Source: Bilabrum cf. latius (taxonomy: Eukaryota). From it: 64,000 bases of DNA. The DNA lies in assembly GCA_965178125.1 (NCBI GenBank), contig OZ237768.1, positions 496,001 through 560,000 of the forward strand. The letters run 5' to 3'. The notes beneath the pieces were generated by a model. It made no database searches. It saw only the letters and a program-made list of their open reading frames with translations, and was not told where the DNA came from. The position numbers and the translations under genes are program-made. Numbering within the stretch: the stretch's first letter is position 1; each line of letters opens with the position of its first letter. This document shows positions 8,901-60,400 of the stretch, one piece after another.

Positions 8901-11900
8901 AAGAGGACTTGCTGCCCACGTCAGCCGTTCGCGTGGACGGTGCAGGGCTCTGCAAGGCAATGCAACCCGGACGCGGTGTGGATGCGCGGCTTGCAGTGGA
9001 CTGCGAGGCCGGAAGAATCATCCGCCTCGCGAAAGATGCTGCTGCGTACGAGCCGAGTTCGACCAGCGGCAGCGGAGAACAAATTGGGGCTGGAATCGCG
9101 ACCAATGATGGGTTTGCCCTGGCTGCGTGCCCGGGCCTCATGCACACATCCAGCTTGCTATCCCCTCTATCCTGCCGCGTGGCCGCATCGATCGCAGCCG
9201 CTGGAGCTGAGACTCCGCATGGGTTGGCACTTAACGCGGCTCGGCGGAAGGTCAGGCTGGCGCCTCTGCTGCAGCCCGCTGCTGCATGGCCTGCAACTAG
9301 GGAGGCGTGCGTCGGTGATGCGGCGCGTAGGAGGGCAGCATCGGCCTGGCGGGAGCGTGCGGCATGCTCGAGGCCGGTGCAGCCTTCCTCCCTTGCTTCG
9401 GCAGCGGAGGGGCTTGCTGCCGCGGCGGACGGTGACGATTACGCAGAGCAGGATCCAGAGGGCGAGGTGGAGGCAGGGATCGGTTCCGCAAATGCGCGGC
9501 GTGCACGCACCGCGCTGGCCAGGCGATCCGCGCAGCTGGCCTTACGGACCGGTACACACGTGTGTGCCGTGCCGTCCTCCGTTCTGGCGGGCGGGCTGGG
9601 TTCCGACGTGGTTGCCGAGAGGAGCCCACTACTGGGCCTTGGGCTAGATGGGGCCGCGTGGTGGCAGGCAGACGCCGGGGCAGAGTACGCCGAAGGCGGA
9701 GGCAGGGGCGCTGCTACTTCCGTTCCCTGGGATTCGTGGACACCTGACGAGGAGGCCGACGAGGAAGACTTCGGCGTGAAGCCAGGCGTGCTGCCCGTGG
9801 AGGAACAGGAAGGTGCCGAGGAGGCGCTGGCGGCCGCGGAGGTGCTTACAAGGAGGGGGGACTCGTGGGGCATGGCGGGACCGATCGGAGCAAGGGAACA
9901 CCAGCACGTGCGAGCCGCGGCGGACGATACTGCCATCGTGACGAGCGTGAATGGAGCTGCGAGGGACGCGGACGAAGACCCCGAGGACGAGGAGCAAGAG
10001 GGCAAGGCGCTCGAGGCAGGTGACCGCGATGCCGCTGATGCGCTGCCGCCCCTCGGTCCGTACCAGTCGCGCCGCACCCGCGCTTGGCGAGACGCGCAGG
10101 AGGTAGCCTCTGCAGGTCACGAGGGCGAGGTCAGGGGCATGCCGGCAAGGGGTCTGCTGCCCCCGCCGCCATTCCGCAGGCCACGCATGGCCGTGGTTGT
10201 TCCCTACGGCGCGCGTGTGACGAGTGCGAGTGCGACCCGCAACGGACATCGGCGGCCAGGCGTCAGCTCCGCTGCATTCCGGCTGCCTCTGCACCCCCAC
10301 GCGAGCGCTGACGCCCCGATGCGCAAAGTGCTGGCGGTGCACTCGGGCGTTCACCACGCGCACGGTCACTCTCACGGTCACTCCAGCCGCACGCACCTTT
10401 CGGAGTGGGCATCGCCCTGGCTGGCGCCCCACATCTCCAGACCTGCAGCGGGTGCGGCACCGCTTCGGTTTGCGCTGGAAACCACGGTGCAGGCGAATCA
10501 TGCCATCGAGGAGGCCATGCAGGCCGCTCTGGTGGCACTGCAAGGAAGCTCGGGCTCCCAGCTCGGATCCGCCTCTGGGGCGTTGCCCAGCACGGTGGCT
10601 CTCGCAAGGCCCCTGCCGCGGGCGAGGCCTCTTCCCATTCCGGCCTCTATGCTGACCGTGCTGACGACGGGGCCTGCCCTGTCTTAGTAGGAGGACGAGG
10701 AGGGTGGGGAGGATGAGGGGGAGGAGGAAGAAGAAGAGGAAGAGGACGGGGGTGGCAAGCCGTCCGCCGCAAAGAAACTCGCAAAGGCCAACAAAGCAGC
10801 CTTCAAGGGCTTGCGCTCCGCACGGGCCGTCGCACTGGAAATGCTCAGGGGGTTGCAGAAGAAGATAGTGGCTCCATCCAAGCTTGCAGCCGTGGCCCGT
10901 CTGCTCCTGCGCGGCATCTTGCCGGATGATGAGGCCACGCGGGGCGCCGGAGACGGGTCGTGGCTGGGCCAGCGGGGCGGGTGGTTCGCGGCAGCTGCCG
11001 GAGAGGCACAGGCAGAGAGCGAGTTCACGCTAGCGTCTGGTCAGGGCATGAAAGACGCCTTCGTGAGCGAGGCAGATGACGGGGCACAGCGGGCACTGCA
11101 GCAGCTGGCCCCCTTCAGCCAGCTGGGCCATATGCTGCTTCGCGCATCCTCGGCAGACGCCGTGCAGCGAATCTTGGCGCCGTCCCGCAGGAGTGACGGA
11201 GGGAATGGCGGCGACATGGTGCGCGCCTCAGAGTCGGGACAGCTTGGGATGGCCATGGCCGGCCCGAAAGGGGCAGTACTCAGGCAGCGAGCCGCAGCCG
11301 CGGCAGCCTTTGCGCTTCGGAGGTGCTGGAGCCCGTTCGGCAGGCACTGTCCCGTGGCGTGGGTTGAAATGGGCGCTGCAGTGGAGGGAAGGTGGGACTG
11401 CGCAGCCGAGTACCGCGGCTGCCTGTACCTCATCTCCGGTGCAAGGCAGTTGGCGCAGTTCCTGAGGTGCCCCAGGCGCTACATTGACGTCAGCGCGACC
11501 ACTCAGAGCGGACTCGGCAACGCCAGTGCATCAAACCGTGGTGCTCCTGACATGCCGCCAAAGCAGAGGATCGCCGTAGTGGGACCCAGGATGGCTGCCC
11601 CGATGACTTCGCTGGAATCTGCTGCGATTGAAGGAGCAGTAGGGCAGGCCATGCGGCCGCACGGTGGTGGTGATGCTTCGACTGCAGATGGATAGGACAC
11701 TCCCATTCGGAAGGTGGATGTCCGCAGCGCTGTGCAGGCAGCGATCATGCTGGCCTGGGAGCAGATCACTAGCGAAGAAGACAGGCTGGGCGAGGACATC
11801 AGAGCCGCGTGCGATGCTGCCTCTGCTGCCGCCGAGGAGGCAGAGGAGAAGAAGCAGCGGAAGGCACTGAAGAAGACCGCCAGCAAAGGCAAGCCAAAGG

Positions 11901-32300: not shown

Positions 32301-35300
32301 ACGGGTCGCAACGGGGGCATCTGTGCCGGCTAGTCCCGACCTGGCCGTGGTGTGCCCGCCGCCCGTTGCACCATCAGAAGCTGCCGATCCTCGTCCCGAC
32401 ATTCCTGACATGTCAAGGTTGTCTGATTGCTGCAGGTCAATCACTGCTTTGTGCTTGGCCTGTCCACCCTCAGTGCCGGCCCCAGCTCTGTGTCTCGTGC
32501 CTCGCTAATCGATCTGATGAAGCCCGGGCGCATTCGGGCCATAAGCGTTGGTGGCTCCGCCGTGCGAAGCTCTGCTGATCCACGAAGCCGTCTGCGTGAG
32601 CACTCGCTCCGTGGCATACTCGGGTCTCTCGTACTCGGACTCGCTGCCACCTCCCACAAGCTCGTCATCGTCGTGCTCAAGATCATCATCGTCATCCTCG
32701 TCGTCCTCGTCTTCGCGGACGACTGGCAGATCAGGTGGCTTGCTGATGGGCTGCGGTGCCGCGACCCGGCGCAAGGTTGCAGAAGGACCCTGGGGACCTG
32801 GCAGTGCTACTGCTGGATCCACTGGCTCATCACCTTCGCTAGACCGTGACGAATGACCTTCGGTTTCGCTTTTTTGGCTATGAACGGCCGTCCTGCCGTT
32901 CTTGGTTCGCTCCTCCCCGCTCGCGTTGGAGCTGTCCTGTCGCGAGCCAGACAGCTCGTTTGAGGATCCAGCCCCCTCGCGGCCCTCTGCGATACTGGGC
33001 AGCTCGGACAAGACCTTGTTTGCGCCCTGTCCGTGTCCGCCCAGACCAAGAGAACCGGGTGCAACCTCGCCGACCCTCGAGCCGCTTGCCAGCTACAAGC
33101 TCTCGCCCTCGACCCCCGGCACTATATCAGCGGATGGAAGGGGCCGGAGGGGTGCTTTCTTGGTCTCCATGTCACTTGTCACTTTCTTTACAACGTCGAG
33201 CGTGGTTGAAATCGTGCTACCGGACTATGTGCGGGTCCTGCCTGTCTTCTGCATGTGGGCCTAAACGAAGCTTGGTGCCCGTTCCAGCTCGCCTCCTCCA
33301 GTACCCACGTCTCCTAGCTTGACCGCTCTGTTCTCTGCCTGTAACTTGCTCATGTGGTTCTGGGGCAGCATGGTGAGGGCCAGAGACTTCTGCACCAGAC
33401 GGTCAACGGCTAGTTTCACCCGGCAGTTGAACTCGTCCAGGAGCCTCCAGGCGTTGCTGCGGCCTGACCTGTACATCATCCTCGACGCCCACATCGTGAT
33501 GATACCGCCCACGATGCGAAGCGATTGTACGGTTAAGTGCACTTCACCAACCGTGAATGGAGCCGCCGCTAGAATCTCGCCCCGTACCGCAAGTACCTGG
33601 GCGTCGTCTCCGACGGGACGCCGAAACAGGTCGCTTGACGAGCCCCATAGAGACAGGTGGGGGCACCCATCGTCAAGCTCCAGCTAGAAATCGAACCCTG
33701 GCAGGCTACACACCGCCACGGCGATGCCCTGAGCACCCTACCAGATCGACACGCCCACGCTGATGGCCTACAAGGCAAGCCCGACTATCGCGCTCGCCCA
33801 TGGCAGCTGGGACGGTGCAACGTGACACATGGCACCCACGAACACAAGCAGGTCGATGAAGTACTGCAGCACAGTGTACGATGCAGAGAGAGTGGAAGTC
33901 GGGTGGTCCAAGGGCACCAGGTGCTGGATCAGAAAGCTGTGCAGCAGGTCCAGCACAAACACGCCCGAGAAGGTGATGAGCAAAAGCGCGTTCATGTCGC
34001 CGATTATCTGAACCATCCTTCCCTGGGTAGGTCGCCTCGAGCTCGAGAGCCTGGTCTGCATCATTTTCTGGAACACCTTGTACCCGATCGGCTTGCTCTT
34101 GCTCTTGCCCTTGGATTTGCTCGAGCTGGCGGAGGCGGGCTTCCTAGCAGCCGCAGCTCCAGCAGCCCCGCCAGAGGATGGCCGCACGTTGCTGCTGCTG
34201 CTGCCCGTGTGCTTCCTCTTGCTATCTGAATCCAAGTACCTAGTACGGCTGGCCGATGGAAAGTGACCAGAGCTATCATCGGTATCTTCAAGCGGGTTCT
34301 AACCGTCAGCTGTGAACGCACGCGGGCTCGCCTTTGGGTCACGACCGCGATCGCTGGTCGGTAGCGACTGGCTTACGGCAAGCGACGCTACACTGTCACC
34401 GTCGGAGCATTGAGAGCAGCAGCAGCAGCAGACCCTGCGGCACAGGGCATACCTGCAGCACACCACAAAGCACAGCCTGCCAGCCAGCGACCCCCCCTGC
34501 TCCCGAGGCCTGGTGTCTTTTTTGTCTATGTGCATGTCTTCCAGCCGGGCTCGAGCCTGGGACACCTCCTCTAGTCGAGGCACGGGTTTAGCGTACATTT
34601 GCGTGCCTGCCTTGACGTCGTGCTCGATGGCACGCAAGGGGGCGCCCATCGCCGCCAAAACGGGCTCAAAGGGGACTCGAGTCGCCTCCTCGCTATGCTC
34701 GTCCCACCTGCCATCTGCACCGGGAGGTAGCAGCCCACTGGCCGCAAGTTCCCCCTCGGAGTTCCGAGCGAGCATGTCGTGGATCCCATTGCTGGGCGTG
34801 GGGGCAGCTTCCGTTGGTGGTGCTACACCACCGCCACTGCCTTCTGCAGGCCCCGGCCCTTTGTGTAGGCCACCGCCTTGTGATGAGGAGCCTTTGAGCG
34901 AGGACCGCTGCTCCACCTGCCTGACGATCTGCACGCCCGCCTCGTTTTCGTGGAGCGCCACCTGGTAGGCCGCGTGCAAGAACCTCGCTTGTTCCCTGGC
35001 ACGCTCCTCCTCCATCTGCTGGTCCAGCTCCTCCCGTGCCTGTCCCCTCGCCGCCTGCATCTCGAGCGACGACACCTAAGGGATGTTATACCCAGTCTGA
35101 TAGGGACCAAGCACTTCCCTGTGCCACGTCGACAAAGCCGCACACAGCCCCAGCACCAGAAGCACCCTCAGCACCTGCACGAGCACCAGCGACAGCTTAC
35201 CCCATCCCCCGAGCAACGCACCTTCCTGCCCTTCCTCATCATACTCTATCGAGGGAACAAACCCGCCAAGCACGTGTCCCCTCACGCTCAGATGAACGTG

Positions 35301-36884
35301 CACCGAGTGCAGCGCGGCAGAGACAATCACGTAGGCCAGGAAGAGGTAGCTCGCTGCAACGATCGTCTGCAGTCGGGACCGCTCGAAGCTATACAGGGCA
35401 TATGCCTGCTACCACAACGGGTCGACGTACGTTTGCCAACGGCTGTCTTTCGTCGCTGCCATGATACCCGCGGTATCATATTTGGCTCCGGATCCGCCCT
35501 CCCCCTCTTCCTCGCTGTCTGCGTCGCTGTCTTGGTCCCGGCCGGGGGACGGTGCCCCTGGGCCGCTTGCGTCCGGCGTGGTGCCACCGCCAACCGCAGG
35601 CGCTACTGCAGGCACGCTGCTTTGGTCAGCGGAAGGGAGAAACACGCTGCCACCCGTGCCCCCGCTCCGTCTGCTTGTCCCGAGCAGGACGCTGCCCGCC
35701 GTCTCCCTGCCTTTTCCGCTCTTGCTCAGCAATCCCTTCCCGGCGTGCAGCCCGTCCCGCATACTCATCGCTCGCTTGCGCTTCTCTCTAAATCCAACTT
35801 TATCAGATGGATCTTCCAACCTGGAGGCGAGCCTTAGCGGTGTTCGCATTCCGCGAGACTGGCCGTCCGGAGAGAGTGCGGCACCAAATGAAGTTTCTCG
35901 CTTCGGCGTGGCAGGGATCGGTGTCTGAGGCGGCGCATTGGAAGGAGTTTGCTAACCGCTTTTACTTTCGCTGGAGCTATGGGATTTCCATCCGCCGGAA
36001 CGTTTCGGCTGGTAGGACAGGTCGGTTACGGGGCCGTGCTCTTTGAATCGGTCTCCGATGGCCTCGTTGACAGGCCCAGGGAGCGACGCTCTCCTAGCCT
36101 TTCCGGATGCACTTGCATGACTACTTCCAGACCTAGCGCGGCCGTCTTGGGGTGATGCCTCCCGGTGACCGCCGGTGTCCGGCATTCCCAGCACACCATG
36201 GTCAACGCTTCCTCGCGTCCACGCCATCAGGGAGCTCTTGCGGTGGCGCTTCGGGGTTTTGGCAGCCATACCTGCTGGTGTACTAAAATTACGATGATGC
36301 GCAGGCGTGAAAGCGTCGTCGTCGTCGTTCAGAGACATTTCGGCGTTGCTAATTTCCAGGGCTGGCGGCCGTCTGCCTCTTTGCGACGTTCCAGTCTCGA
36401 CTGCGAGGCCTTCGAACTAATTTTGACTAGCTTCCGAACCCAAATCTGCTCCTTCATTGGGAAATTCGGATGCCTGGCCTGTGAACACGGAAGGTAGAGT
36501 GCAGTGACAGTTCCAACGAATACAACGCATAGTGCCGGCAGTGTTGGTGAGCCAGCCATATCGCGCCCCAATACCCACAATTATGGTACATTCGATAGAA
36601 TTGATTTGGATTTCGCTGCCAAACAAACCAAATACACCGTAAAAGAGCGGACACACTCCACTGACCGGGTCGTGTTTGATTCATCGCAGCAGCGGTTTCT
36701 TAGAACGATGCACACAGCATGACTAGGGTAATTGGATCAATAATGCATACTAGAACTTACCTAACGGGTCCGCCAAACGCTAGGTGGTGGTTCCATCCAC
36801 AAACTGTTGCAATGCTCGCTCCTCCCGTTGCAGCAGCTTGTCAACGTCAACCTTGGCGACAGTCATCCAGTGGTTTGAATTCAT
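20320..36884 (-). CDS. Giant membrane class III nucleotidyl cyclase (~5,381 aa) with TM blocks and two catalytic domains, probably a guanylyl cyclase; 29 in-frame TAG
   Basis: Model: exons 36884-36761, 36478-29437 and 29299-20320 (introns 36479-36760 GTAAGT..CAG and 29300-29436 GTGAGG..CAG). Splicing the second intron restores PAWKLFGDPVNVTSR. Domain 1: TVLFAYAVGY, KVETIEST, IKIGLHSG, VKLKGKG. Domain 2: VLYADIKGFT, VDTIGDC, LRIGIHTG, RPRYLLWG. All gaps between the listed ORFs were translated and contain only TAG. It ends at TGA 20320-20322. Confidence 0.85.
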
Positions 36885-37061: not shown

Positions 37062-38110
37062 ATGATCATTTATGCAGCAGTAGCGAATGAACAAACAATA
37101 TTAGTCGAACACGCGTCCCACGCAGGGTAGTTCCTTGCCGTCGCACACAAGTTGCTGAGCTCTGAGAATCTTCCAAACTACGATACGAGAATATCGTACA
37201 GTGCAGACAAGTAAGGTCACTGAACACGCGTGCTATGATTGGAAGGTGTGCATCACACATTCAATACGCCTTGCTGGATGCTGGTGACCGCAGGCACAAG
37301 TTTCACCTTATCGTGGACTAGGGCATGCGTTTCGTATGTCTCGCGGAAGCATAGTTGGGCCATAGGATACCATTCCTGCTCCTACAAGATATCAGATCAA
37401 AGTTTATTGCATCGGTAAGAGCTTAATCCTGCCAACTAACCATCAAGTGCCGAACTAACGCACCCTGCCACTGCTCTTTCGCGTTGCGGGCTGTAGCGCA
37501 GTTTCCTGGAGACGAGGCTCTACGGGCCACTGAGCCGGACAGTTACGTTCGTGCATTTAGTTCTCAGCTAAAGCTCCTTGTTGTAAGGTCCAGCTCGATT
37601 TGGCTTCCTTTTGCAAAGCACCTTTAGGGACTCACCGGTTCACCCGTTCCTTCCTTGATTCTGCGCAGGAAAAATATGCCGACCCAGCACAATCGAAAGT
37701 GTAGGCAATTAAAAATGAGCTAGACCAGGTCAGATCCGTGGCTATGGAGGGAATCGGTGAGACGACGCCCCGGCTGCGTTCAATCCGCACTTGCTCGCTT
37801 CACGTCTGTCGCTGCGCTGCTCCTCATGTTTTATTGAGACCATCAAAGCTGCGCGCGACAACGTGTATGTTATACTGCAGATCTTGTTTTGGACCGCGGT
37901 GAGGGCGTTGATGAGATGGCAGAACGGACGACTTTGCTCGCCGAGTCCTCGAGGCAATTCGCCACTGCGGGCAGGCGCTTGAAATCGACCATGTGGTGGA
38001 GGAACGCAAGGATGCAGTGCCTCGTGGTAGTGGCCGTGCTAGTATTGTTGTTGATTGTGCTGGGAGTGGGCTGCGGACCCTCCTTCTGCCTCTCAGGGCG
38101 GGGGACATAA
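37062..38110 (+). CDS. VAMP7: VAMP7-type longin R-SNARE (222 aa); 4 in-frame TAG, ends at TAA
   Basis: Exons 37062-37210, 37294-37414, 37502-37582, 37669-37756 and 37881-38110, all with GT..CAG introns in matching phase. Longin N-terminus MIIYAAVANEQTILVEH..G*FL..FHLIVD*GMRFVCLAEA*LGHRIPF. SNARE coil with zero-layer Arg (VLDRGE), then MWWRN and a C-terminal TM segment. TAGs at 37128, 37319, 37352 and 37702. Confidence 0.92.
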
Positions 38111-38228: not shown

Positions 38229-40216
38229 TCACTTTGTCGGCACGAATGCCAGCCCCTCAAACTTGAAGGGCCCAAGGTCGGCAAACCCCTCCCGAAGCCC
38301 CACCCCCTCCACCACGGCCGCCACCCCCGAAACCGGAACACCGTGCAGCAGCGGCCCCCTCCCGTCCGTGAAGAGCACGCCCCTCTCATTCTCCAGAGCC
38401 TCTGCCCTGTGGCAGGCCGCCGGCCACGGCACCTCGGCGAACCTTGGCGAACGTTCCTTGCCGACCGGCGCATCCGCAACGGAAGCGGAAGCACTCGCGT
38501 CAGCGGGAACACTAGTGGCGTTGCGGGAGCCCACTCGATGCTCCCCTCTCCCCTCCCCACCACCACCCTACGCCGCCCCCTTGCCCGCCTAGCTAGTCCC
38601 TCTATCCCTATCCCCATCACCACCTGATTCGCGCCTGCTTGCTTCATTCCCATCGGAGGAGGAGGAGGAGGAGGCAGCACCACCCGCGAACCTGAGTGCC
38701 GCTAGGCAGAATGCCTCCGTGGAATCGATGGCCCCTTGCCCCAGCCACGCCTCCACAGCCTCGAGCACCTTGCGCCTGCGCTGGTTCGCGAACGTTCGCA
38801 GAGGAAGCAGCTCGGCCACCGTGGGGACCGACCGGCCACCGGTTGCAACCTCAATCCCACCGCCGGTTGCAACCACCTCGGGCATCCTCTCGTCCAGCAG
38901 CACCTCCCCTTCCGCGCTGAGCACGGTGATCTTGCTGTGCACCTGATCCTCCACCTCCTTGGACTTGAGGGCGAGGTACACACCGTGAGATCCGGGCACC
39001 GCCCGGATGGCCGTGAAGCCGAACGTGTCCTCCCGCGGCCCCGCTGTCACCGTGTGCACGTGCGCGAAATCGTCAGAGGCTCGCAGCAGGAGGTTCGCGC
39101 CCCTGTACTAGTCCTGCTTGGGCGTGTACGGCGTGGATGGACTCCTCTTCCTGGGTGCGAAGATCCACTCCCTGCTGCTGCCCACGTATGCCACGGCCTC
39201 GTGCCAGAGGTACCCGGGTTCGGTCACGTTCGCCGCGGTTCGCAGCGCCGCGTATATGCTGGACCATCGGTAGTTCTGCACCCTGCCTGTACCCAGGTCG
39301 ATGGTCTTGGTCCATTCCGAGTCCCTGTGCACCGTCCGGCCCTGAGCGTCCTGGAAGGCCCTCCCCATGGATCCCACCCAAATCATCCCGTCTCGTGTCG
39401 TGCTCCATTCGGACTTGAAGGGCCGTGGCTGGTCCCCGTCCCCGTCCGCGAGAGCCCACCGCTGGAAGAGAGCGCCGTCCTCGGGCCGGATTTTCCAGAC
39501 GAGCCCTGTGACGTCACAGAAACCGAATAGCTTGTCGTGGTGGAAGAGCAGCTCGCTCAGCTCCATGGAGCGGCCCCCTCGGTTCATGCGAGCACGAAGC
39601 ACCTGCTCGCCCAGCCACTCGATTCGGTACCTGGGCTTGTCGGTCTCCGGCTCACCGGGCAGTCCATCCACCCGTTTGAGCACACCTTTGCGCAACACAG
39701 ACCCCCAGTAGCTTTTCTCCATCTTACGCTCTCCCCGAGGCTCCACAAACCCCTTCGGGTCCTCGCTCCCGTCCGTTGGCAGCCCAGAGCCGGAGAAACG
39801 GATTCGGTCCTCCAGCCCTCTGGAAGCATGATCCATATCCGTGACGATATAAAACTCATGATCCTGCGATGTGACAGGTATCTCCCGAAACGCATCTGCA
39901 GGCTTTGCTTCAACATGCAAACCTTGGTGAACCACGCAGAATATGTTCGTGCTAGCGGCCAACTCACCCTGGTGTCGTACTTTAATCGATCAAAATCAGC
40001 GGCAGATATACCTCCGCTATGATCAAGAGAAGCGGCAGCCCTTGGGGCAGCTGGAGACGGGGCTTCCGTCGGAGGCACCGCTTCAAGATTCGATGCCGAC
40101 CCTCGCGCACCTGCAGCGTGTTCGTGGATGCTCCGCGCCACATCCAGCGTTGGATTACTCTTAAGCAGTAATATCACAACAGCAACGATGAGTGCTACAT
40201 TGATGTATCCTTGCAT
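38229..40216 (-). CDS. Ca2+-activated nucleotidase/apyrase (CANT1/Cimex family), ~627 aa, with signal anchor and a large C-terminal insertion; 3 in-frame TAG
   Basis: Exons 40216-39968 and 39863-38229 (intron 39864-39967). Motifs IVTDMD, RSMELSEL, LADGDG...FKSEW, VGSMG, PGYLWHEA, APRK, RGANLLL, FGFTA, ALKSKEV and terminal KFEGLAFV followed by TGA. Confidence 0.9.
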
Positions 40217-40851: not shown

Positions 40852-42465
40852 CCATCCTCGTCGTCCTCGTCATCAGCACCCCCTGTGGCCGCCTCACCCT
40901 CGCCCCCCTCAGCGGCTGCCGCTGCCCCCTTCAGCTATGCCCTGCCCTCCTTGGTGCAGTGCAGGTGCTTGGTGCCTGATGCGTCGCGGGACTGCGGATT
41001 CATACAAATGCAAGGGTACATGTGATTCAACGCTTGCGCCATAACGGGGTGAACGGCTGAATGCATGAAAAGCATAGCTCGCAATGATGCGCAAATGAAG
41101 CAAGGGGACGACGATTCTCACGAAAACCACGGGCCGCTTGCAGACCGGGCATCGCTACGCGTGAGTCGCAAGCGACGGCATGAACTCCGCGTAAGCCCTA
41201 TCTGAGAGACAGAACTCTTTGCTGACGGCGCACTTGCCTCTGGCTGCGAGGTCACTGGCGACCTCGGCGGACTTACCCGGCTGCGGCCTACCTGATGTGC
41301 TCAGGGGGATGAGCCAGCCCTCGGTGAGCAAATCGGCGGTGACTCTGCGAGGGGAGGGGGTAGAGGGGAAATATGGAGTGAGAAAGTCAGTGGAATGGAT
41401 CGAGACGGGTGGCAAGCGGGGGAGGGGTGGCAGTACCCTAAGCTACGGAAGCGAGTGGTTTAGGTGGCACCACACGTCCGAGCCATGGCACGCTGTGGCA
41501 CTGAACGGCACACTTGGTCCCATAGGCACACTGAATACTGTAGGAGAAGGGCAAATGCTCACCTGTGGGGTCTGTGCAGCTTGCTCTGGCGAAGGTTCGA
41601 CACGCTTCGATCCATGCCTGTGGGCGCGGGGGCCCCGTCCCGCTGCTGGGCAGTTGCCTTGATGTTGCCGACCAGCTCCTTGATGGACCCGTAGTCTAGT
41701 TTGCCTTCCCTGCGAGCGAGTTGATCATGGAGAGAGAGATTATATCGCGGGAGGGATGTTGATGGAGAGAGCGTACCACGAGGGGATGCAAGCGTTCTGT
41801 CAAGCTTGCGATGCTAGCCTGGTAGTGCTGACGCATCGCACAATGCCTCGTAGTAATGGCATTCACAGGTAAAAGCCAAAAATACAAGCCCGGCGACGAC
41901 GTCCCCTCACCCATCCGTGGCTACGTACTGGACGATCATGTCCAGAACGAGCACCTGCCAGTCGTCCAGGCCGGCACCCTTCCTCGTAATGTCATCTGGG
42001 TTCTGCGGGACGTGGCATTCATAGTTGAGAATGACATAAGTTGGCCGTTGTGGCTCGCCTCATTCCAAGCTGCATGGATACCACTGGATTTGCAATGTAC
42101 TCACCCTGTCCACTAGCGCTAGCATCTTCTTCCCATTAAGCTCGCTCGCGAACGCCTAAAAGTACATCCCAAACTTTTCAATTGATGAGTTGACTTGCTT
42201 TAGGCAACTTTGAAACGTTTTGGGATCTCTAGAGGCTGCGTCTTCTCCTACGGGAGATTTGAACTCCTCAAGTGCGAACTCAAAATGGTCCTCAGCTTCC
42301 CCTACAGTACAACAGCGCTGTGCCTGCGCAACTTTGATAAGGCGAAGAATGGTTATTTCTTGTTCTACACCCAATCACTCCAAGCACGTGAACAAATAGG
42401 GCCTACCTTACGGCAAGCAGCTGAAAAAATGCTCGGTGGACATCCGTCAACTTTGCAAATTCCAT
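40473..42465 (-). CDS. NSE1: SMC5/6 complex subunit NSE1 (~417 aa) with a reduced RING and an acidic/RG-rich tail; 3 in-frame TAG
   Basis: Six exons: 42465-42412, 42323-42105, 42002-41911, 41709-41563, 41344-41122 and 40991-40473, with GT..CAG introns in phase. N-terminus LTDVHRAFFQLL resembles NSMCE1 MTDVHRRFLQLL. Also LALVDR, LLTEGWL, LSDRAYAEF.P.L and CPVC...HLHC. It ends at TGA. Confidence 0.8.
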
Positions 42466-50443: not shown

Positions 50444-53400
50444 TCAATTCCCATCCTCTCTTTCCACCCCCTGCACCCCGAAGGCCCCCTTCACCTCCAG
50501 TAGAGCACCGCACTCCTCTTTGACGCAAGAATCCGCATCCTCCCGAAGCAGCCAGCGCCTCCTAGCAGCTCGCTCCCAGATACAGGCCTCCCCATATACA
50601 CATGATCCAGCAACATCCGAATCAACACCATCACCACCCTTGATCTGCCCCGGCACCCTCGGCTTGGGCGCCGACCCAACAGCACCGAATGATAGACCCA
50701 TGCAGGACCTGCCTTCTTGCACACGGACACACGCCACCCGCTGACCTGTCACGAAGGACGCAACGTCTAACGGTGCTCCGAAGCCAGGTCCAGCACCGGC
50801 CCCAGCCCTAGTCCCAGCACCGGCCCCAGCCGCCGTGGCGTTCGCAGGATCCTCGTCGGCACCAGCCCCGGAGGCAGCGGGAGGAATCACGCTGCCACCT
50901 CTATGTGAGAATGGCCCATCCCCACTGGCCCCACTCGCTCCATCACCATCACCATCATCATCACCATCATCATCACCATCATCATCACTCGTCACACCCG
51001 CACAGGCCCGCAGCCCTTCCTCACTCTCTGGCCCGAACAACAGTGCCCTTAGCGCCAGAATCGCCTAGGACGGATCCAACCTCAGCTAGGGCAACGGCTG
51101 CTGCAGCCCCCTCAGGATCGCCTCCAGCCAAGGGCCAGCCCGCCTCAGCCTGGGAATCTTCGCAGGGTCGTACACGAACCCGCAATCAGGCAACGGCCCC
51201 TCGTCTTCCCTTGGACCACCACTCCCACTGGAGCCAGCAGCAGTTGCAGTTGCACCGCTTGCAAAGGCACCAGCACCCGAGCTGGCCCCTTCCTCTCGAC
51301 CTGCACCTGCTGCCAGCACGTTCCACACCATGCGACTTGCGGCCCACGCATCTGCGGACTCGTATGCCTGATCCAGTGTGACGAGTGGAGCCCCTTTCGA
51401 ATCAGTGGCCCACTGCCCCTTGTTCATCGCAGTCAGCTCCGGTGCCCTGGTCACAGCCGCACCGTGCTCGTTCAACTCCTCCGAGGCGAAGGCAACGGGG
51501 ATTGATCCCGCGCCCGCACCCTCAAAAGCAGGCGGACTGCTTCCAGTGCTTGCCCCAGACCTCCCGACAGCAGAGCTTGCACCACCACTAGCACCAACAG
51601 ACACGCGCCCTGACCTTCGCCGCATCGTCTCCAGAAAGCTACTGCCGCCCGACGACCCAGCCGCACCACCAGCACCACCACCTGCATCAAGTCCATTGTC
51701 CGCCCCAGCTGCCCTGCCCCTGGCATCCGCCTCCATTTTCCTCCTGCCCTCTGCAAACTCACGGTCCAGCTCAGAGGCATGACCGCCTTTATACAGCAAC
51801 CGACCGCACCCAAAATCGCCCAGCACCAGGCGCCCGTCTGCAGCCAGGAAGAAATTGTCCGCCTTGATATCACGATGCACCGCCCCGTGGGCTAGCATGT
51901 GCTGGGTGGCCTCCAGAGCCCCTAGCAGCCATAGCGCCGCCTCCCTGGGCCCCGTGCACGGCATGTCCTCTACGGCCAACTTCAGGCTCGTGGGGTACCG
52001 GGGCATGACGATCCACGTGGTGCGTCTGGCCACCACGCCCAAGTCCATCAAGCCCCTGCGCACCCAAGGTATGACGAGTGCGGAGGATCCGAAGAAGGAG
52101 TGCAGAACAGGCACGATGTGCGGGCAGCTGGTGCCAAGCACCCGAGGCACCCTCCATTCCTCCCTGTGCTTGTTCACCACATCCTGGGAGTAGTAGGTGC
52201 TCGTGTTGGCGAATGGAAGCAGGCCCTTGACGGCGAGCTAGGTCACCAATCCACCGGTGGATGCTGGTGCACCAGCTCTCGTTCCGGCAGGAGCAGTCTA
52301 CGCATCGGCCGCAAAGACGAATCCGTTGACGCCGTCGCCTCCCCCTGCCTTGCCCTCGGGCAGGTTCAGCGGTGGGATGCGTCCCGCCTCTACCAGCAGG
52401 AAGGGGTCACTGGATGCGGCCGATGCAGCAGCATCTGTCGATCTCTGGATCCTCGTGGCTTTGCCCACCTCTACCACTTTGACCGCTCCGCCCACCAAGA
52501 CCTCCAGCTCCTCAGCGGCAGGCACAGAGCCCAGATCAATCCGGTTGCCGTCAGCACTGTGAACGTACTCGAGTCGGCCAGCGGCGTGCTGCATCCAGTC
52601 GCTGCATTCACGCAAAGCATTAGGCAGTGACGTCTCAATGCCATCAGCTCTAGTAGGAGCCCCATGTCTGTCAATGATTTCAGCTGCCACCTCCCTCACC
52701 CTCCCATCCCCGCCCCAAGATTCCAGCAGGTTTGCAGCAGGGGCGTACCATCGCAGCTCGGACACGGCCAGCACCGCGGCGTTAGATGGTTCCGCAAAGC
52801 CCAGCGCGAGCAATCCCCGGACGATCCCGAGAGATGCTGCCCCTGACCTGCCCGAGCCCAGCACTCCCAGCGCACGACCAACGGACCCGTCCTCACCCAG
52901 CCCCTGCCACAGCTCTCTAGCAGCTGGGTCCCCCCACAAGACAGCCAATGCATCGGCCGCCTCAGGGGCTCTAGTCTCTTCCAGCAGCATGGCCAGCCAG
53001 GCCACTGCACCCGAGTGGACAAGTGCAGCTCTGCATGCATCGCTCGATCGGGCCAGAGCCAGAGCCCACGCAGCAGGCCGATACGATGCCCCTTGGGGGA
53101 GCATGGGATACAGTCCAGTCTATGCCACTGCGTTAATACTAGGCATTAAAGCGCACTGCACTGCTGCAACTGCGTGCGGAACCAAAGCAGGATCGTCCAC
53201 GAGGCCCAGGACGAGGGCGGCTCTGCAGGCGCCTGGGGTGAGTGCATTGCACGGCAGCTACCTGGTGAGTGCAGCTTTGGCACCGAGTGCCTTGGCAGCC
53301 TGCTCATGAACAGCGCCTTCCGAAACATCGTCGATGGCCTCGGCAAGAGCGTGGCATGCAGCGTCTGCGCATTCGCCATCTCTGCCACTGGAAGCAGCCA

Positions 53401-54730
53401 GTGCCATCAGCGCGGCGTCCACTGATCGATAGCACGCAATGTAAACGGCAGAGATGGAGCCCTCGCTAACGTGACCCGCTTGCCTGACCTGCAGGGCCCG
53501 CTAGACTAGGAGCCTTCGGTCGCTGGGGGAGAGGGACTCTATGGCCTAGTTCATCTCGTACAACGATACTGACTCCAAGCTACCAATCGACTCGAATTGA
53601 CGTGCCAGCTCTATCATGGTTCCTGTTGATGCCAACAGAACGGCTGGTAACCCATCTGCTCTGAAGCCAGTACTGCGTACCTATGAGCGTTTGGTGATTT
53701 CCCTTACGATGGAGGCGTCACAATTCATTACCCAGAGTGTCAGCTCCCGCAGTGCCCCCTTGGTCTTCAGGGCCTCCCCGAGCCAGCGAGCACCATCATC
53801 ACCCACCTTGGTGTTCCTGAGATCCAGCTACTGCAGGGCCCCGTTGGTCTTCAGGGCCTCCCCGAGCCAGCGAGCTCCATCATCACCCACCTTGGTGCCA
53901 CTGAGATCCAGCTACCGCTGGGCCACGTTGGTCTTCAGGGCCTCCCCGAGCCAGCGAGCCCCATAATCACCCACCTTGGTGCTCCTGAGATCCAGCTACC
54001 GCAGGGCCCCGTTGGTCTTCAGGGCCTCCCCGAGCCAGCGAGCACCATCATCACCCACCTTGGTGTAATTGAGACCCAGCTACTGCAGGGCCCCGTTGGT
54101 CTTCAGGGCGTCCCCAAGCCAGCGAGCCCCATCATCACCCACCTTGGTGCCACTGAGATCCAGCTACCGCAGGGTCCCGTTGGTCTTCAGGGCCTCCCCG
54201 AGCCAGCGAGCACCATCATCACCCACCTTGGTGTAATTGAGACCCAGCTACCGCAGGGTCCCGTTGGTCTTCAGGGCCTCCCCGAGCCAGCGAGCACCAT
54301 CATCACCCACCTTGGTGTAATTGAGACCCAGCTACAGCAGGGTCCCGTTGGTCTTCAGGGCCTCCCCGAGCCAGCGAGCACCATCATCACCCACCTTGGT
54401 GCCACTGAGATCCAGCTACCGCAGGGTCCCGTTGGTCTTCAGGGCCTCCCCGAGCCAGCGAGCACCATCATCACCCATATTGGTGCCGCCTAGATCTAGC
54501 TTCTGCAGCGTCAATATATGTTTAAGCAGACTTCCAAGGGCCCATATAGCCTGTTCAGGCATCTGGATGCCAATCATATCGAGAATTCGGGGATCTTGGC
54601 TTCGGTTCATTGCCATCAGGCATCCGATCCGCTCTTGCATCCACTTACGCATAGGCAACAAACGGGATCGGACTACACCATATAGATCCGGAGTGATTTC
54701 ATCGCTTGACGCTTCTCGGTGCGAACCCAT
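50444..54730 (-). CDS. LRR (ribonuclease-inhibitor type) + helical region + PINK1-like protein kinase (~1,430 aa); ~17 in-frame TAG
   Basis: ORFs 54416, 52298, 51086 and 50444 share one frame, with only TAG between them. Kinase motifs GDGVNGFVF, LAVKG, CPHIVPVLHSF, VMPRYPTSL, VHRDIKADN, DFG, RAPE, ADAWA. It ends at TGA. The start at ATG 54730 is tentative. Confidence 0.8.
53740..54510 (-). repeat. 84-bp tandem array encoding 28-aa LRR units (LR*LDLSGTKVGDDGARWLGEALKTNGT), about 9 near-identical copies
   Basis: Exact 84-nt periodicity. TAG sits in the same column at 53828, 53912, 53996, 54080, 54164, 54248, 54332 and 54416. Confidence 0.95.
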
Positions 54731-55604
54731 CGCTTGACGCTTCTCCTGGAGCCATTCTCGGCATAAAGATTGCAATAACTCTGCATGTCGTCCACGAATC
54801 TAGAATTATATGGACAATATTGAGATGTTGGCAAGCAATTGTCTCATTTATGTCTCATATTCATGTTGTGCTGACCCTCTTTACGCAACAGTTGAATCTT
54901 GGTTAGTCTGGTAGGGCTCACTAGCTCGTCTGCATCATAAAATGCAGGTTTACCACCACCAGATGTTTGGACTAGCTTTTGTTCGAGCAAAGATGGTATA
55001 AATAGAGACTTTTTCCGGCATGGTATGACACCTGACGGCACTCTCAATCGTGCCTCGAATCACCACCTATGTTGCCTAACAACGGATACAATACTTCGTA
55101 AGCAAAGTAGCGCGGCAAGATTTTCCATTCCGTTTACACCAATATGTCCTTAGCCTATTCGTAAAACCCTCGATAGCTAGATAAGGCGCTTGTACCTGGG
55201 CGGCTATGCCCGGCATCAGTGGGCCCACTTTTCCATAAATTGTCGCACGTAACTTCGATGGATTGGTCAAATTGATACAGTATATGGATCTATCTGTTTG
55301 TTTTTCTTATTCAAGGCAAGAATTGGTGGAGATTAGCGTTAATTGGAGGCATGAACCGGAAAGAGAGAAGCGTCAAGCGATGGGTTCGCCGACAGGCAGG
55401 CCTGCCAGAGCCCGCGAGACGCCAACTTTGTGTGGCCCGTACACTCAATCAAAGTGATTATACGGTGCTTAAGCGATCAATTATCAATATTTATTACTTA
55501 TTTTCCATCATGGTGTATAGTAAGTGTGCAATGCAGTCGAAATAGACTCACTACAAGGGACTGAAAACAGCCAGAAGCGTCAAGCGATGAAATCACTCCG
55601 GATC
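54685..55604. repeat. Nested inverted repeats around an AT-richer core (possible MITE-like element)
   Basis: 54685-54716 is the exact reverse complement of 55573-55604 (32 bp), and 54721-54745 of 55365-55389 (25 bp). All four arms share the core ATCGCTTGACGCTTCT. Confidence 0.7.
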
Positions 55605-57413: not shown

Positions 57414-60400
57414 TCATACATCACCTCCAGCGGTTGCAGCGGGCTAGTGACCACCTTCCTAGATCCCCAGCAAGTCAGCAAGCGCGGTGCAGCACGCCTG
57501 CATGTAGGCAGATGCCCCATCACGCGCAAATACGCTCCGGCGCAGGTGCCTGTCCCACACGCTTGCCTCTCCTGGGAGCAAGAACAGCATACCACTGCGA
57601 GAAACTGCACCGGCTTCGACGTCTGCCACCGGTGCCACCGATTTCATGGTGCCGATGGTGGGTGCCTGCAGCAGAGACATCAGTGCTGCCTCCGCTCCTG
57701 TTCGCCCCATGGATGACGCGGCACCTGACGCTGCCAACCCATGCGGTGCATCGCCGCTCTAGAGTGCAGAGGGGGGCAGGAACTCGTGAGCACCAGCAAG
57801 TCCCAGTGAAAGCGAGTTCGCCTGCTGGTTGCTGCTGCAGGCCACCGAGCTGTCAGAAACGCAGCGCCGCAGCTCATATGACATCGTGCTGTCCTCGCGC
57901 ATCAGGGGCTATCGCATACCACCGTTGATAGAGAAGGAGTCTTGCCGCTGTAATTGAGGCGGGCGTACTTGCTGCTCCTGGGCGTACGCTTCGGCCGAAT
58001 CGGGCCGGTCGCTGTCTGGCGTGTGGTAACCGTCCAGCCCTCCAGCGATCTCTCTCGTCACCGGCTCGATCGCTTCATCGGCGTGGTCCAAAGCGACCAC
58101 GTGGTCCACAACGAATCGAGCTGCAGCCTCCCTGCTGGATGCCACATGAGCCACATCCGCCGTGGTTGTAGGCCCGTACAGTGCCGCAACCAGGGCCATG
58201 CACGCTTTTTTCGAGCTCAGTCGGCGGGAGGGGTCCCCCTGCAGCAGGCCTCGCAGCACCGCCTTGATCACGTCGCCGCACACTGAGTGGTGTGTCGTGT
58301 CATCGTGCTCATCCACCGGATCAGGAAGGTCCCCGTTGGAGTATATCCGGGTCGTATCGGGAAACGGCTTGCGAGTCACCCGCCCCTCCAGCCTCCACGG
58401 AAGCGACTTCCGAATCAGATCCCAGATGAGCCTGGCTGCGGCCCACGGCTCTGAGGACGTCATCACATCAGCCATTGGCTTGTCTCCCACCACTGTAGCT
58501 GCATCTTGACCAGTGCTCACCCCGGCAAGCGCGATGATTTCCGGTGCCCGCGTGCAGAAAGCACCGCCAACGTTGTTGTCCTGCTGCACTTCCGTAAAAG
58601 TAAGTGCCTGTGCTCCTGGAGCAGCCATCAAGAATGGGCCTCCTCTATCGGGATGCATGCGACTTCCTGGTGCAGGCGTGGTCCCTGCTGCACCTGCTGC
58701 TCCTGCTGCACCTTCTGCTCCTGCTGCTCCTGCTGCACCACCGCCCTGGGCCTGTGTATGCCCGCTTTCTGATCCCTGTCCAGAGGCACCATCACTTTCA
58801 TTGTACATCACGCAGGCCTCGCCAAAGTCTCCGAGTACAACCCGACCGTCCTGTGTCAGGAACACGTTGTCTGCCTTGATATCCCGGTGCGCAACCCCGC
58901 GGGCGATGGAGTGCTGGATCGCCTCGAGCAGCTGCAGCAGCCACAGGCACAGCAGTCGCTAGCTGAGACCATGTGCACCATCATCCAGTATAGATAAAAC
59001 GGTTTCAAGACTTGCCGGATACCGATGAAATACGCTCCAGCGCGTGCGATCAGCGATTGCTCTGCCTGCGGTTTCAAGCCACCCAGACCCGATCCACGGA
59101 ACCATAAGCTGGATAGATCCCGTGAAAGAGTGCCGCACTTGCGCTACATTTGGATGCGGGGCCAGGCAGGGCGACATGCTCGGGGCGATATCTAGCGAGC
59201 TCGCAACTGACGATGCATCCTCATGTTCGGTGACATCTCGTTGGGGAAGGGAAGTGCGCCGCTCCTGGCCCTGCTGGCTTGCCATAGGAGAAATTTCCCC
59301 ACGAAGCCAGAGCAAAGGATCTCTGAAGAAGCGGTCGTCGAAATCGTCACTTTCCCGGGCCAGCAAATTGTCAATCAGCTCTTCTTTGCGGAATATATCT
59401 TCTGCCTCGGCATCTGGGTCGAGATCCGGAGGTGCATCTCTGCCAGCCTGCATGCCGCGATGCACGCGATTCAGGGGAAGGCCTCCGCGCAACACGGCGT
59501 GATTCACAACGGATCGACTCGCACTGCTTTTAGACTGCAGCGAAGTTTCGTCTCTGTCTGGTGCTTCGCGGTGCCGACTAATAGGATCAAGTGAATGCCC
59601 AATGTAGCGAATCGCAAACACCACGGCATTGCAGCCCTCCCTTCGAGAGGTGCCGTCTGCCGGGTCGCTGACTGGCCTGGCCCTCCCAGTCTGCAGCTGT
59701 GTCTCGTGCTCTCTTGGATGCGTTCCCGGGGGGAATCTAACTTCCTGTGCCTGACCCCTGGCGCCATCACGGGCGTCAACGACTCTGAATTTCCCATGGC
59801 AGAGCGTGCTCTCGAGCTCGTGCACTGTGCCAACAGACCCCAGGTCAATCGTACCGCATCTGAGATACTGGATGCGTGGATGCGATGCCGTCCAGTCTCC
59901 TCTGAGATTTGGAGGCAAAGCCAGTTGTTCTGTGGTCCTGATCACGCTGTAGTAATGTCTCCATCGCCGTACAGCTCTGTGCCTGGCTCTAGCTAGCGTT
60001 GCAACCACCACATCTGGCTTGTCCTAGTCGGCCGATGTACCAGTCAATCTGGGTCGCACACTAGTTTCTGCTGATATCCACGCCGTTGTGAGCTGCTCAG
60101 CTGTGGGAGGCTATTTCTGGCTCTCGGTTTTCTCTCCCCGGTCCATGAGTAGCTGGTACAGGGGCAGTTTGGAGGACCTGTCGTACAGCCGCTGGCCAAG
60201 GACCTGCCTTGTGAGTGACTTTGCTCCACTTGTCAAGTCTGCAGTGGCTTCATCACACGCAAGTTGCGTGCCAAGCTAGACTGCAAACCAAAGAGCTACT
60301 AGCACAACTAGGCACTGCATGGCAGTTAACATCACCGTCTGCAGGTTCCAAGACCATAACCCGCTGGAGTACACCACGTACTCTATAGCAACAATGGGAA

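Follow-up and report, generated by a model that had tools for sequence, protein, structure and literature searches.

Which amino acid does TAG specify in the nuclear genes of this organism? The question is raised by the stretch of 64,000 nucleotides analysed here (the window), which is part of contig C34 in an assembly of 48.6 Mb and 111 contigs, has a GC content of 60.6% and displays very long reading frames only when TAG is left open: frames of 5444, 3094 and 2416 codons then appear, for which chance is excluded, and 13 long ORFs contain 101 in-frame TAG codons, 97 of which lie downstream of the first Met. One of these codons was flagged in an apyrase gene, in the context PKQD-TAG-YRGANLLL, where it lies opposite the Glu of the KDDERKG motif of human CANT1 KDDERKGANLLL (PDB 1s18). 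An initial annotation had favoured Gln as the meaning of TAG, while pointing out that several conserved sites, including this one, suggested Glu instead.

Table 1. Coordinates of the features discussed in the text (positions in the window unless a contig is named).
Feature	Position	Strand	Remarks
Apyrase, in-frame TAG read as Gln, at the CANT1 'DDE' site	39108..39110	-	homologs, CAG in the ortholog, spliced contigs
Apyrase exon 2, CANT1-type (PF06079), with C-terminal insertion and 3 TAG, ending in TGA	38229..39862	-	
Apyrase intron, GT-AG (CT..AC on the plus strand)	39863..39966	-	removed in X5 and X6 contigs
Apyrase exon 1, N-terminal hydrophobic segment	39967..40216	-	putative ATG start
TAG in kinase (GLS-TAG-RLL)	58959..58961	-	Glu ahead by 1.4 bits, within noise
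TAG TAG preceding an acidic tract (EDEE) in the 5444-codon ORF	10685..10690	+	ORF reading only
TAG in cyclase-like ORF (DPLW-TAG-QAY)	35409..35411	-	ORF reading only
TAG in hydrophobic segment (GLAL-TAG-AISV)	33768..33770	-	ORF reading only
LRR-kinase-like ORF	50444..54805	-	8 tandem LRRs with TAG at one repeat position (54418-53828)
TAG-free virophage type (L123-L130)	C21:637455-648417; C36:465567-470499; C1:620438-632307; C40:337908-344597		

In the apyrase, the flagged column is occupied by Glu in 20 of 22 homologs, with Ala in one and Gln in one, which speaks for a reading in which UAG encodes Glu and UAA is still a stop. A second apyrase of the same genome (C4:604740-605531), a canonical paralog, has the usual Asp-Glu. 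Profile comparisons at window sites lean the same way: with TAG read as Gln or as Glu, the Pfam scores were 238.7/240.4 bits for the apyrase, 40.4/41.8 for the kinase, 82.5/95.1 for LRR_6 and 94.7/94.2 for the cyclase, so that Glu led by 1.7, 1.4 and 12.6 bits in the first three and Gln by 0.5 bits in the last. The LRR score comes from 8 TAG-bearing repeats that are copies of one unit rather than 8 independent sites, and repeats without TAG have Lys and Glu at that position. The Glu leaning that had been pointed out was thus recovered in three of four comparisons; as a genome-wide reading, however, Glu failed in the dynein columns described below. The leaning of the window sites is also not decisive because true Gln codons occupy Glu columns equally often (6-9%).

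The kinase, cyclase, acidic-tract and hydrophobic-segment sites that had been cited were found (Table 1), as was HAG-TAG-FLAV near 37128, in an ORF whose VAMP7-like name is the label of the initial annotation. Two of its arguments for Gln, that TAG has few Glu neighbours and is absent from poly-Glu, were borne out: Glu accounts for 5 of the 194 neighbours of TAG in the 13 long window ORFs, and none of the 19 runs of at least three Glu contains a TAG. Over 264 kb, the Glu-neighbour rate of TAG (0.051) is nearer to those of CAG (0.062) and CAA (0.076) than to those of GAA (0.086) and GAG (0.097), which weakly supports Gln.

The only Gln-bearing apyrase homolog (P0124), which is also the closest of the 22 with 76% identity, comes from a metagenome contig (L080; Ga0136560_1008408, positions 515-2125), and the database protein begins immediately after a TAG. 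This ortholog contains two in-frame TAG codons and has CAG at the flagged site, which argues against the Glu reading; one of its TAG codons faces a CAG of the window gene and the other a GAG, the latter in a variable stretch. The reciprocal TAG/CAG swap indicates a lineage-specific change from Glu to Gln and a code common to both organisms. Judging from these sequences, Gln was already in place at the flagged site in this apyrase subfamily, and a second species uses the same UAG=Gln code. The window apyrase (38229-39989, minus strand) and L080 also share a long insertion ahead of the last strand. A literature search gave no paper on what the Glu of CANT1 does at this position.

A different explanation would be that such TAG codons are not real or are removed, through sequencing errors, a pseudogene, tiny introns or RNA editing. 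Nothing was found in its favour, although the assembly does include a contig with a second, foreign-looking 18S, and we consider it extremely improbable. Four runs from four studies cover the flagged TAG without differing letters in the pieces listed, and contigs from runs X5 and X6 (from studies other than that of X1), which we take to be RNA runs although the record lists none as such, lack positions 39863-39966 and agree with the gene on both sides of the TAG and at it, with no other letters. Since these contigs are spliced and would thus represent mRNA, editing and hidden introns are excluded at this site, so that an artefact or editing is refuted for it. The in-frame TAG codons of a second organism, the presence of a cognate tRNA in the genome and the interruption of dynein domains by TAG only also argue against such an explanation.

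The main evidence on the identity of the amino acid comes from 19 dynein heavy-chain paralogs, from each of which we took 10 kb. When TAG is left open, 18 of these genes are each covered by a single frame that is 3,224 codons long or longer, and TAG numbers reach 48 per 10 kb. Of 28 dynein AAA_6 matches, TAG lies within 12, and TAA or TGA within none. TAG codons were placed on a profile built from 69 of the 120 homologs listed, all DHC2-type and thus representing a single protein family; 150 of 270 aligned confidently, at 133 distinct profile positions, and the 120 others were dropped. Their columns scored 168 bits for Gln, 83 for Lys, 42 for Glu, 36 for Asn, -123 for Tyr, -172 for Leu and -199 for Trp, and CAA and CAG gave the same order of residues. 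All 15 control codons recovered their standard residue with this profile. In equal-size samples, the difference between Gln and Glu was +127 bits for TAG, +117 and +105 for CAG and CAA, and -74 and -66 for GAG and GAA, so that Glu codons themselves stand at about -70. Gln exceeded Glu in all 19 genes and was the top residue in 10000 of 10000 gene bootstraps; the best single residue was Gln in 15 genes, Lys in 3 and Arg in 1, the four exceptions having 1-7 sites each.

Restricting the comparison to columns that are at least 90% conserved gave the same picture: TAG lies in Gln columns at 24 of 41 sites and in Glu columns at 3, as compared with 34 and 5 of 55 for CAA, whereas GAA lies in Glu columns at 66 of 92 sites and in Gln columns at 2. 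Glu columns account for 26 of 436 CAG sites and for 582 of 751 GAR sites, and TAG differs from GAR (Fisher p=1.9e-23), while no difference from CAR was seen (p=0.73). In this one protein family, the profile-column check proposed with the initial annotation came out for Gln, with Glu far from dominating the TAG columns, and its preference for Gln over Glu and its view that Leu, Tyr and Trp fit poorly both held; the column scores reject six other readings of TAG, as Glu, Leu, Tyr, Trp, Lys or Ser. Together with the CAG of the ortholog, these columns refute the Glu reading computationally: a UAG-only Glu code with UAA as a stop, which had been considered at the outset, is not supported and has at most a negligible chance of being right. 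Codon swaps between host paralogs, in which TAG faces GAG 4 times, CAG 3 times, TGG twice and six other codons once each over 264 kb, were discarded as a test, being too few and mixed.

Genes of this genome end at the two other stop codons. Among 62 ORFs of at least 300 codons in 264 kb, 41 end in TGA and 21 in TAA, and seven of the eight dynein frame ends that fall inside the fetched DNA match the C-termini of homologs (six TGA, one TAA), the eighth being an internal break. A code in which UAA and UAG both encode Gln (table 6) is rejected, since TAA is the stop of eRF1, of a dynein and of 21 of the 62 ORFs. TAG makes up 15.6% of the Gln codons of 76 long ORFs, is evenly spread along them and is present in 71 of them; the coding score is -0.026 downstream of the last TAG and -0.043 upstream of it, as against -0.375 beyond the stop. 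This even spread, the coding-like sequence downstream of TAG and the homolog-matched ends indirectly show no sign of TAG as a context-dependent stop in these genes. Based on these sequence comparisons, we estimate with a probability of about 96% that nuclear UAG encodes Gln and that UAA and UGA are stops. This corresponds to what we take to be the type of NCBI table 15. Such a table is already known, and the novelty is its occurrence in a stramenopile: in the open-access literature, supplements aside, we found no nuclear code change in a bicosoecid or any other stramenopile. That 71 of 76 long ORFs contain TAG also implies that gene calling with the standard code cuts short most genes in this clade.

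No tRNA gene was detected within the window; a single tRNA(CUA) gene was located elsewhere in the genome (C23:907607-907679, 69.8 bits; Rfam and ARAGORN). It was the sole match of a genome-wide CUA/UUA anticodon pattern, which thus gave no tRNA(UUA); this pattern would miss intron-containing or atypical tRNAs, and Rfam scored 63 of 780 candidates. The initial annotation had expected a tRNA derived from tRNA-Gln or tRNA-Glu; its stems instead resemble those of tRNA-Tyr. Of the 12 base pairs in its acceptor and anticodon stems, 10 recur in the host tRNA-Tyr(GUA), as against 6 in tRNA-Gln(CUG), 4 in tRNA-Glu and 3 in tRNA-Gln(UUG), both differences from tRNA-Tyr being compensated pairs; C1-G72, a G27-U43 wobble pair and a 5-base variable loop are common to the two. 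The next-best match was 6 pairs among 41 other tRNA rows and at most 5 among six more, and tRNAs for different amino acids shared at most 8 pairs in 224 comparisons, in a set made up of host tRNAs; nuclear tRNA-His, tRNA-Leu and tRNA-Glu(UUC), which were not recovered from the whole genome by Rfam or by patterns, are absent from it. Whole-sequence identity was unresolving (Tyr 50, Ser 50, Glu 49, Gln 49).

Other parts of this tRNA point to Gln. Its D stem is that of tRNA-Gln(UUG) at 8 of 8 positions, and it has G73 and G10-C25 as in tRNA-Gln(UUG), whereas Tyr and Glu tRNAs have A73. In the accessible part of PMC9976931, A73 and C1-G72 are given as Tyr determinants in eukaryotes, the 10-25 pair, U35 and the discriminator as Gln determinants in E. 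coli, and a missing residue 47 as a Glu determinant in E. coli. C38 as in tRNA-Glu and a D arm that also resembles tRNA-Glu(CUC) could be taken in favour of the Glu reading, but G73, G10-C25 and the presence of residue 47 set the tRNA(CUA) apart from the host tRNA-Glu. A suppressor derived from tRNA-Gln is not supported by the stems, the D stem and G73 being the only matches to tRNA-Gln(UUG). The simplest history, to which we give about even odds, would be that of a Tyr amber suppressor that switched to Gln: the tRNA(CUA) would have arisen from tRNA-Tyr(GUA) by G34C and then have gained Gln identity through A73G, the replacement of U2-A71 by G2-C71 and a Gln-type D stem. If so, UAG would at some stage have been read as Tyr or in a mixed way. 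C33 carries a true GlnRS, which is ordinary in sequence, with three departures at conserved columns in addition to an Arg-to-Gly difference from human in the anticodon domain, which was dismissed as ordinary (Gly in 94 of 148 homologs). The tRNA(CUA) pattern had no match in IMG/VR.

The retention of C1-G72, a eukaryotic Tyr determinant (PMC9976931, accessible part), could mean that UAG is mainly Gln and partly ambiguous, with some Tyr insertion or some termination, and the same may be suggested by the eRF1 motifs described below and by the lower share of TAG among Gln codons in dyneins (9%, versus 16% regionally). We consider this unlikely: the other Tyr determinant, A73, is replaced by G73, TAG shows no excess in Tyr columns at 70% conservation or more (2 of 65, as compared with 3 of 92 for CAA), it is neither enriched nor depleted near gene ends, and the dynein genes richest in TAG are incompatible with much termination.

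The eRF1 gene, on C35 (L054), has three introns predicted from homology, and two of the 16 Gln-type codons counted are TAG, both in the N domain. One lies at human Q44, which is Gln in 116 of 118 homologs, and the other at human L69, which is Leu in 117 of 118. As Q69 is found also in PDB 8ip8 and Zostera, and thus in plant eRF1, L69Q is insufficient and was rejected as a sole cause. GTS, NIKS, E55 and S70 are retained, and R28K, G29A, N30D, I35V, S60V and K130H (human numbering) were seen in 0-3 of 110-118 homologs. The accessible part of PMC5304391 links L69A and T32G to weaker UAG recognition and names the retained motifs. Termination at UAG would possibly curb the synthesis of eRF1 itself through its N-domain TAG codons, as a feedback.

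Under the preferred UAG=Gln code, GlnRS would charge the tRNA(CUA) with Gln; a C at position 34 cannot wobble with A, so that only UAG would be read and UAA would remain a stop; and an eRF1 with altered N-domain residues would compete poorly at UAG. The change would have occurred after the split from Cafeteria and be common to at least one other species. The top dynein heavy-chain match among the 120 homologs listed is from Cafeteria roenbergensis (60%), and a FastTree of one gene (last 1,500 residues, 34 sequences) joins the host, as the sister lineage, to a group formed by Cafeteria and one JGI sequence (support 1.0). On this single gene tree, the host appears to be a bicosoecid-like stramenopile, sister to Cafeteria. 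Cafeteria has annotated full-length proteins, and we take its nuclear code to be standard. The complete picture would be that of a first change of the nuclear code among stramenopiles, in a bicosoecid clade that is rich in GC and prefers TGA, with a single former tRNA-Tyr now serving Gln and virophages recording a barrier; it is tentative, and we rate it slightly below an even chance.

UAG-only reassignments are rare: the accessible part of PMC11687900 names, besides several ciliates, a single case each from a rhizarian, a fornicate and a green alga, and the host would be an independent stramenopile case. Its code is the same as that of the fornicate Iotanema spirale, with UAG=Gln, UAA as a stop and the two codons uncoupled (PMC5304391), and since Iotanema belongs to another supergroup, the host code must have originated independently; Iotanema eRF1 has T32G in GTS, whereas the host has an intact GTS with changed neighbouring residues. 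The ciliates Hartmannula sinica and Trochilia petrani also use UAG=Gln with UAA/UGA stops and no sign of context-dependent UAG (PMC11687900), as does Protocruzia tuzeti, cited there, in its UAG=Gln and UAA/UGA stops. However, UAA is the stop in 87-98% of genes in these ciliates whereas TGA is the main one in the GC-rich host, and according to the accessible part of the same source neither H. sinica nor T. petrani yielded a suppressor tRNA, unlike the host. In Oligohymenophorea sp. PL0344 (PMC10553269), UAG is likewise read apart from UAA by tRNA(CUA), but with UAG=Glu and UAA=Lys and by ten tRNA(CUA), all most like tRNA-Glu, in contrast with the single tRNA with Tyr-like stems of the host. The rhizarian exLh (PMC5304391) similarly has UAG alone reassigned and position 69 of eRF1 altered, with UAG=Leu and L69A there and L69Q in the host. 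All of these comparisons rest on the accessible parts of the sources. In a GC-rich genome, it is not obvious that such a code would arise by AT bias removing TAG. With a contiguous genome, a decoding tRNA, eRF1, GlnRS and a second species with the same code in hand, it becomes testable which eRF1 residues lose UAG and yet keep UAA and UGA. The same holds for a swap of amino-acid identity by a suppressor tRNA in the course of reassignment. Also testable are the proposed Tyr origin of the tRNA and the two classes of virophage described below, the Glu reading being excluded.

Independent evidence for the Gln code comes from endogenous virophages. A 27-kb virophage-like element (C34:460682-487632; L087-L089; GC about 0.30) lies 8.4 kb upstream of the window; it has 426-bp inverted repeats, matches to integrase, penton and primase, a weak capsid match, and in-frame TAG in all its long genes. 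Its capsid has 35 matches across the genome, about 20 near-identical copies occur elsewhere, and IMG/VR gave no relative of it. Near-identical virophage copies are polymorphic at 9 TAG sites, where the alternative to TAG is CAA or CAG in 7 cases, a Lys codon in 2 and a Glu codon in none. This alternation with CAA/CAG independently supports UAG=Gln. Four virophage types use TAG, at TAG/Gln codon counts of 101/302, 83/317, 102/260 and 44/215, and in four copies of a second virophage-like type the counts are 0/124, 0/73, 0/78 and 1/114 (a doubtful ORF). This second type is essentially without TAG as sense codon or stop and is thus readable in either code; it is possibly a recent arrival from a host with the standard code. 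If the code does act as a barrier, these counts would record it, with long-resident types using TAG for 20-39% of their Gln codons and another type for none. Streblomastix strix also has integrated DNA viruses in the variant code of their host (PMC10120064, accessible part), but there the code is UAR=Gln, whereas in our host TAG-using and TAG-free virophages reside in one genome.

Several further features were noted. The mitochondrial genome (C111; L047-L050) has 38.4 kb and 24% GC, and uses TGA=Trp with a tRNA(UCA); ARAGORN finds only 10 tRNAs in it. A mitochondrial TGA=Trp is reported for a bicosoecid (PMC6723347, accessible part), in line with the placement of the host. A small contig (C95:1-10000; L051, L076) carries TTTGGGG-type repeats and a second 18S of 1802 nt, as compared with 1700 nt in the C12 array. 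This second 18S is presumably dinoflagellate-like, and the contig is probably from a contaminant or a co-cultured organism. Both tRNA-Ile genes found have the anticodon GAU, which is unusual for a nuclear tRNA-Ile of a eukaryote. A group of near-identical tRNA-Met(CAU)-like genes (L022, L032, L036, L044-L046) differs from two other tRNA-Met genes and resembles tRNA-Pro(UGG), with 8 of 12 stem pairs; these genes are perhaps repeat-borne.

In the window, a small gene (41122-42003, minus strand) contains two further GT-AG introns (41345-41562 and 41709-41909), confirmed by spliced contigs, and runs X1 and X5 differ at many letters over positions 54787-55572, which are probably a dispersed repeat or a divergent allele. 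C34:418390-492170 contains a family of similar ORFs, six or more in number and each about 555-620 codons long, whose starts resemble signal peptides; some of them lie beside the virophage.
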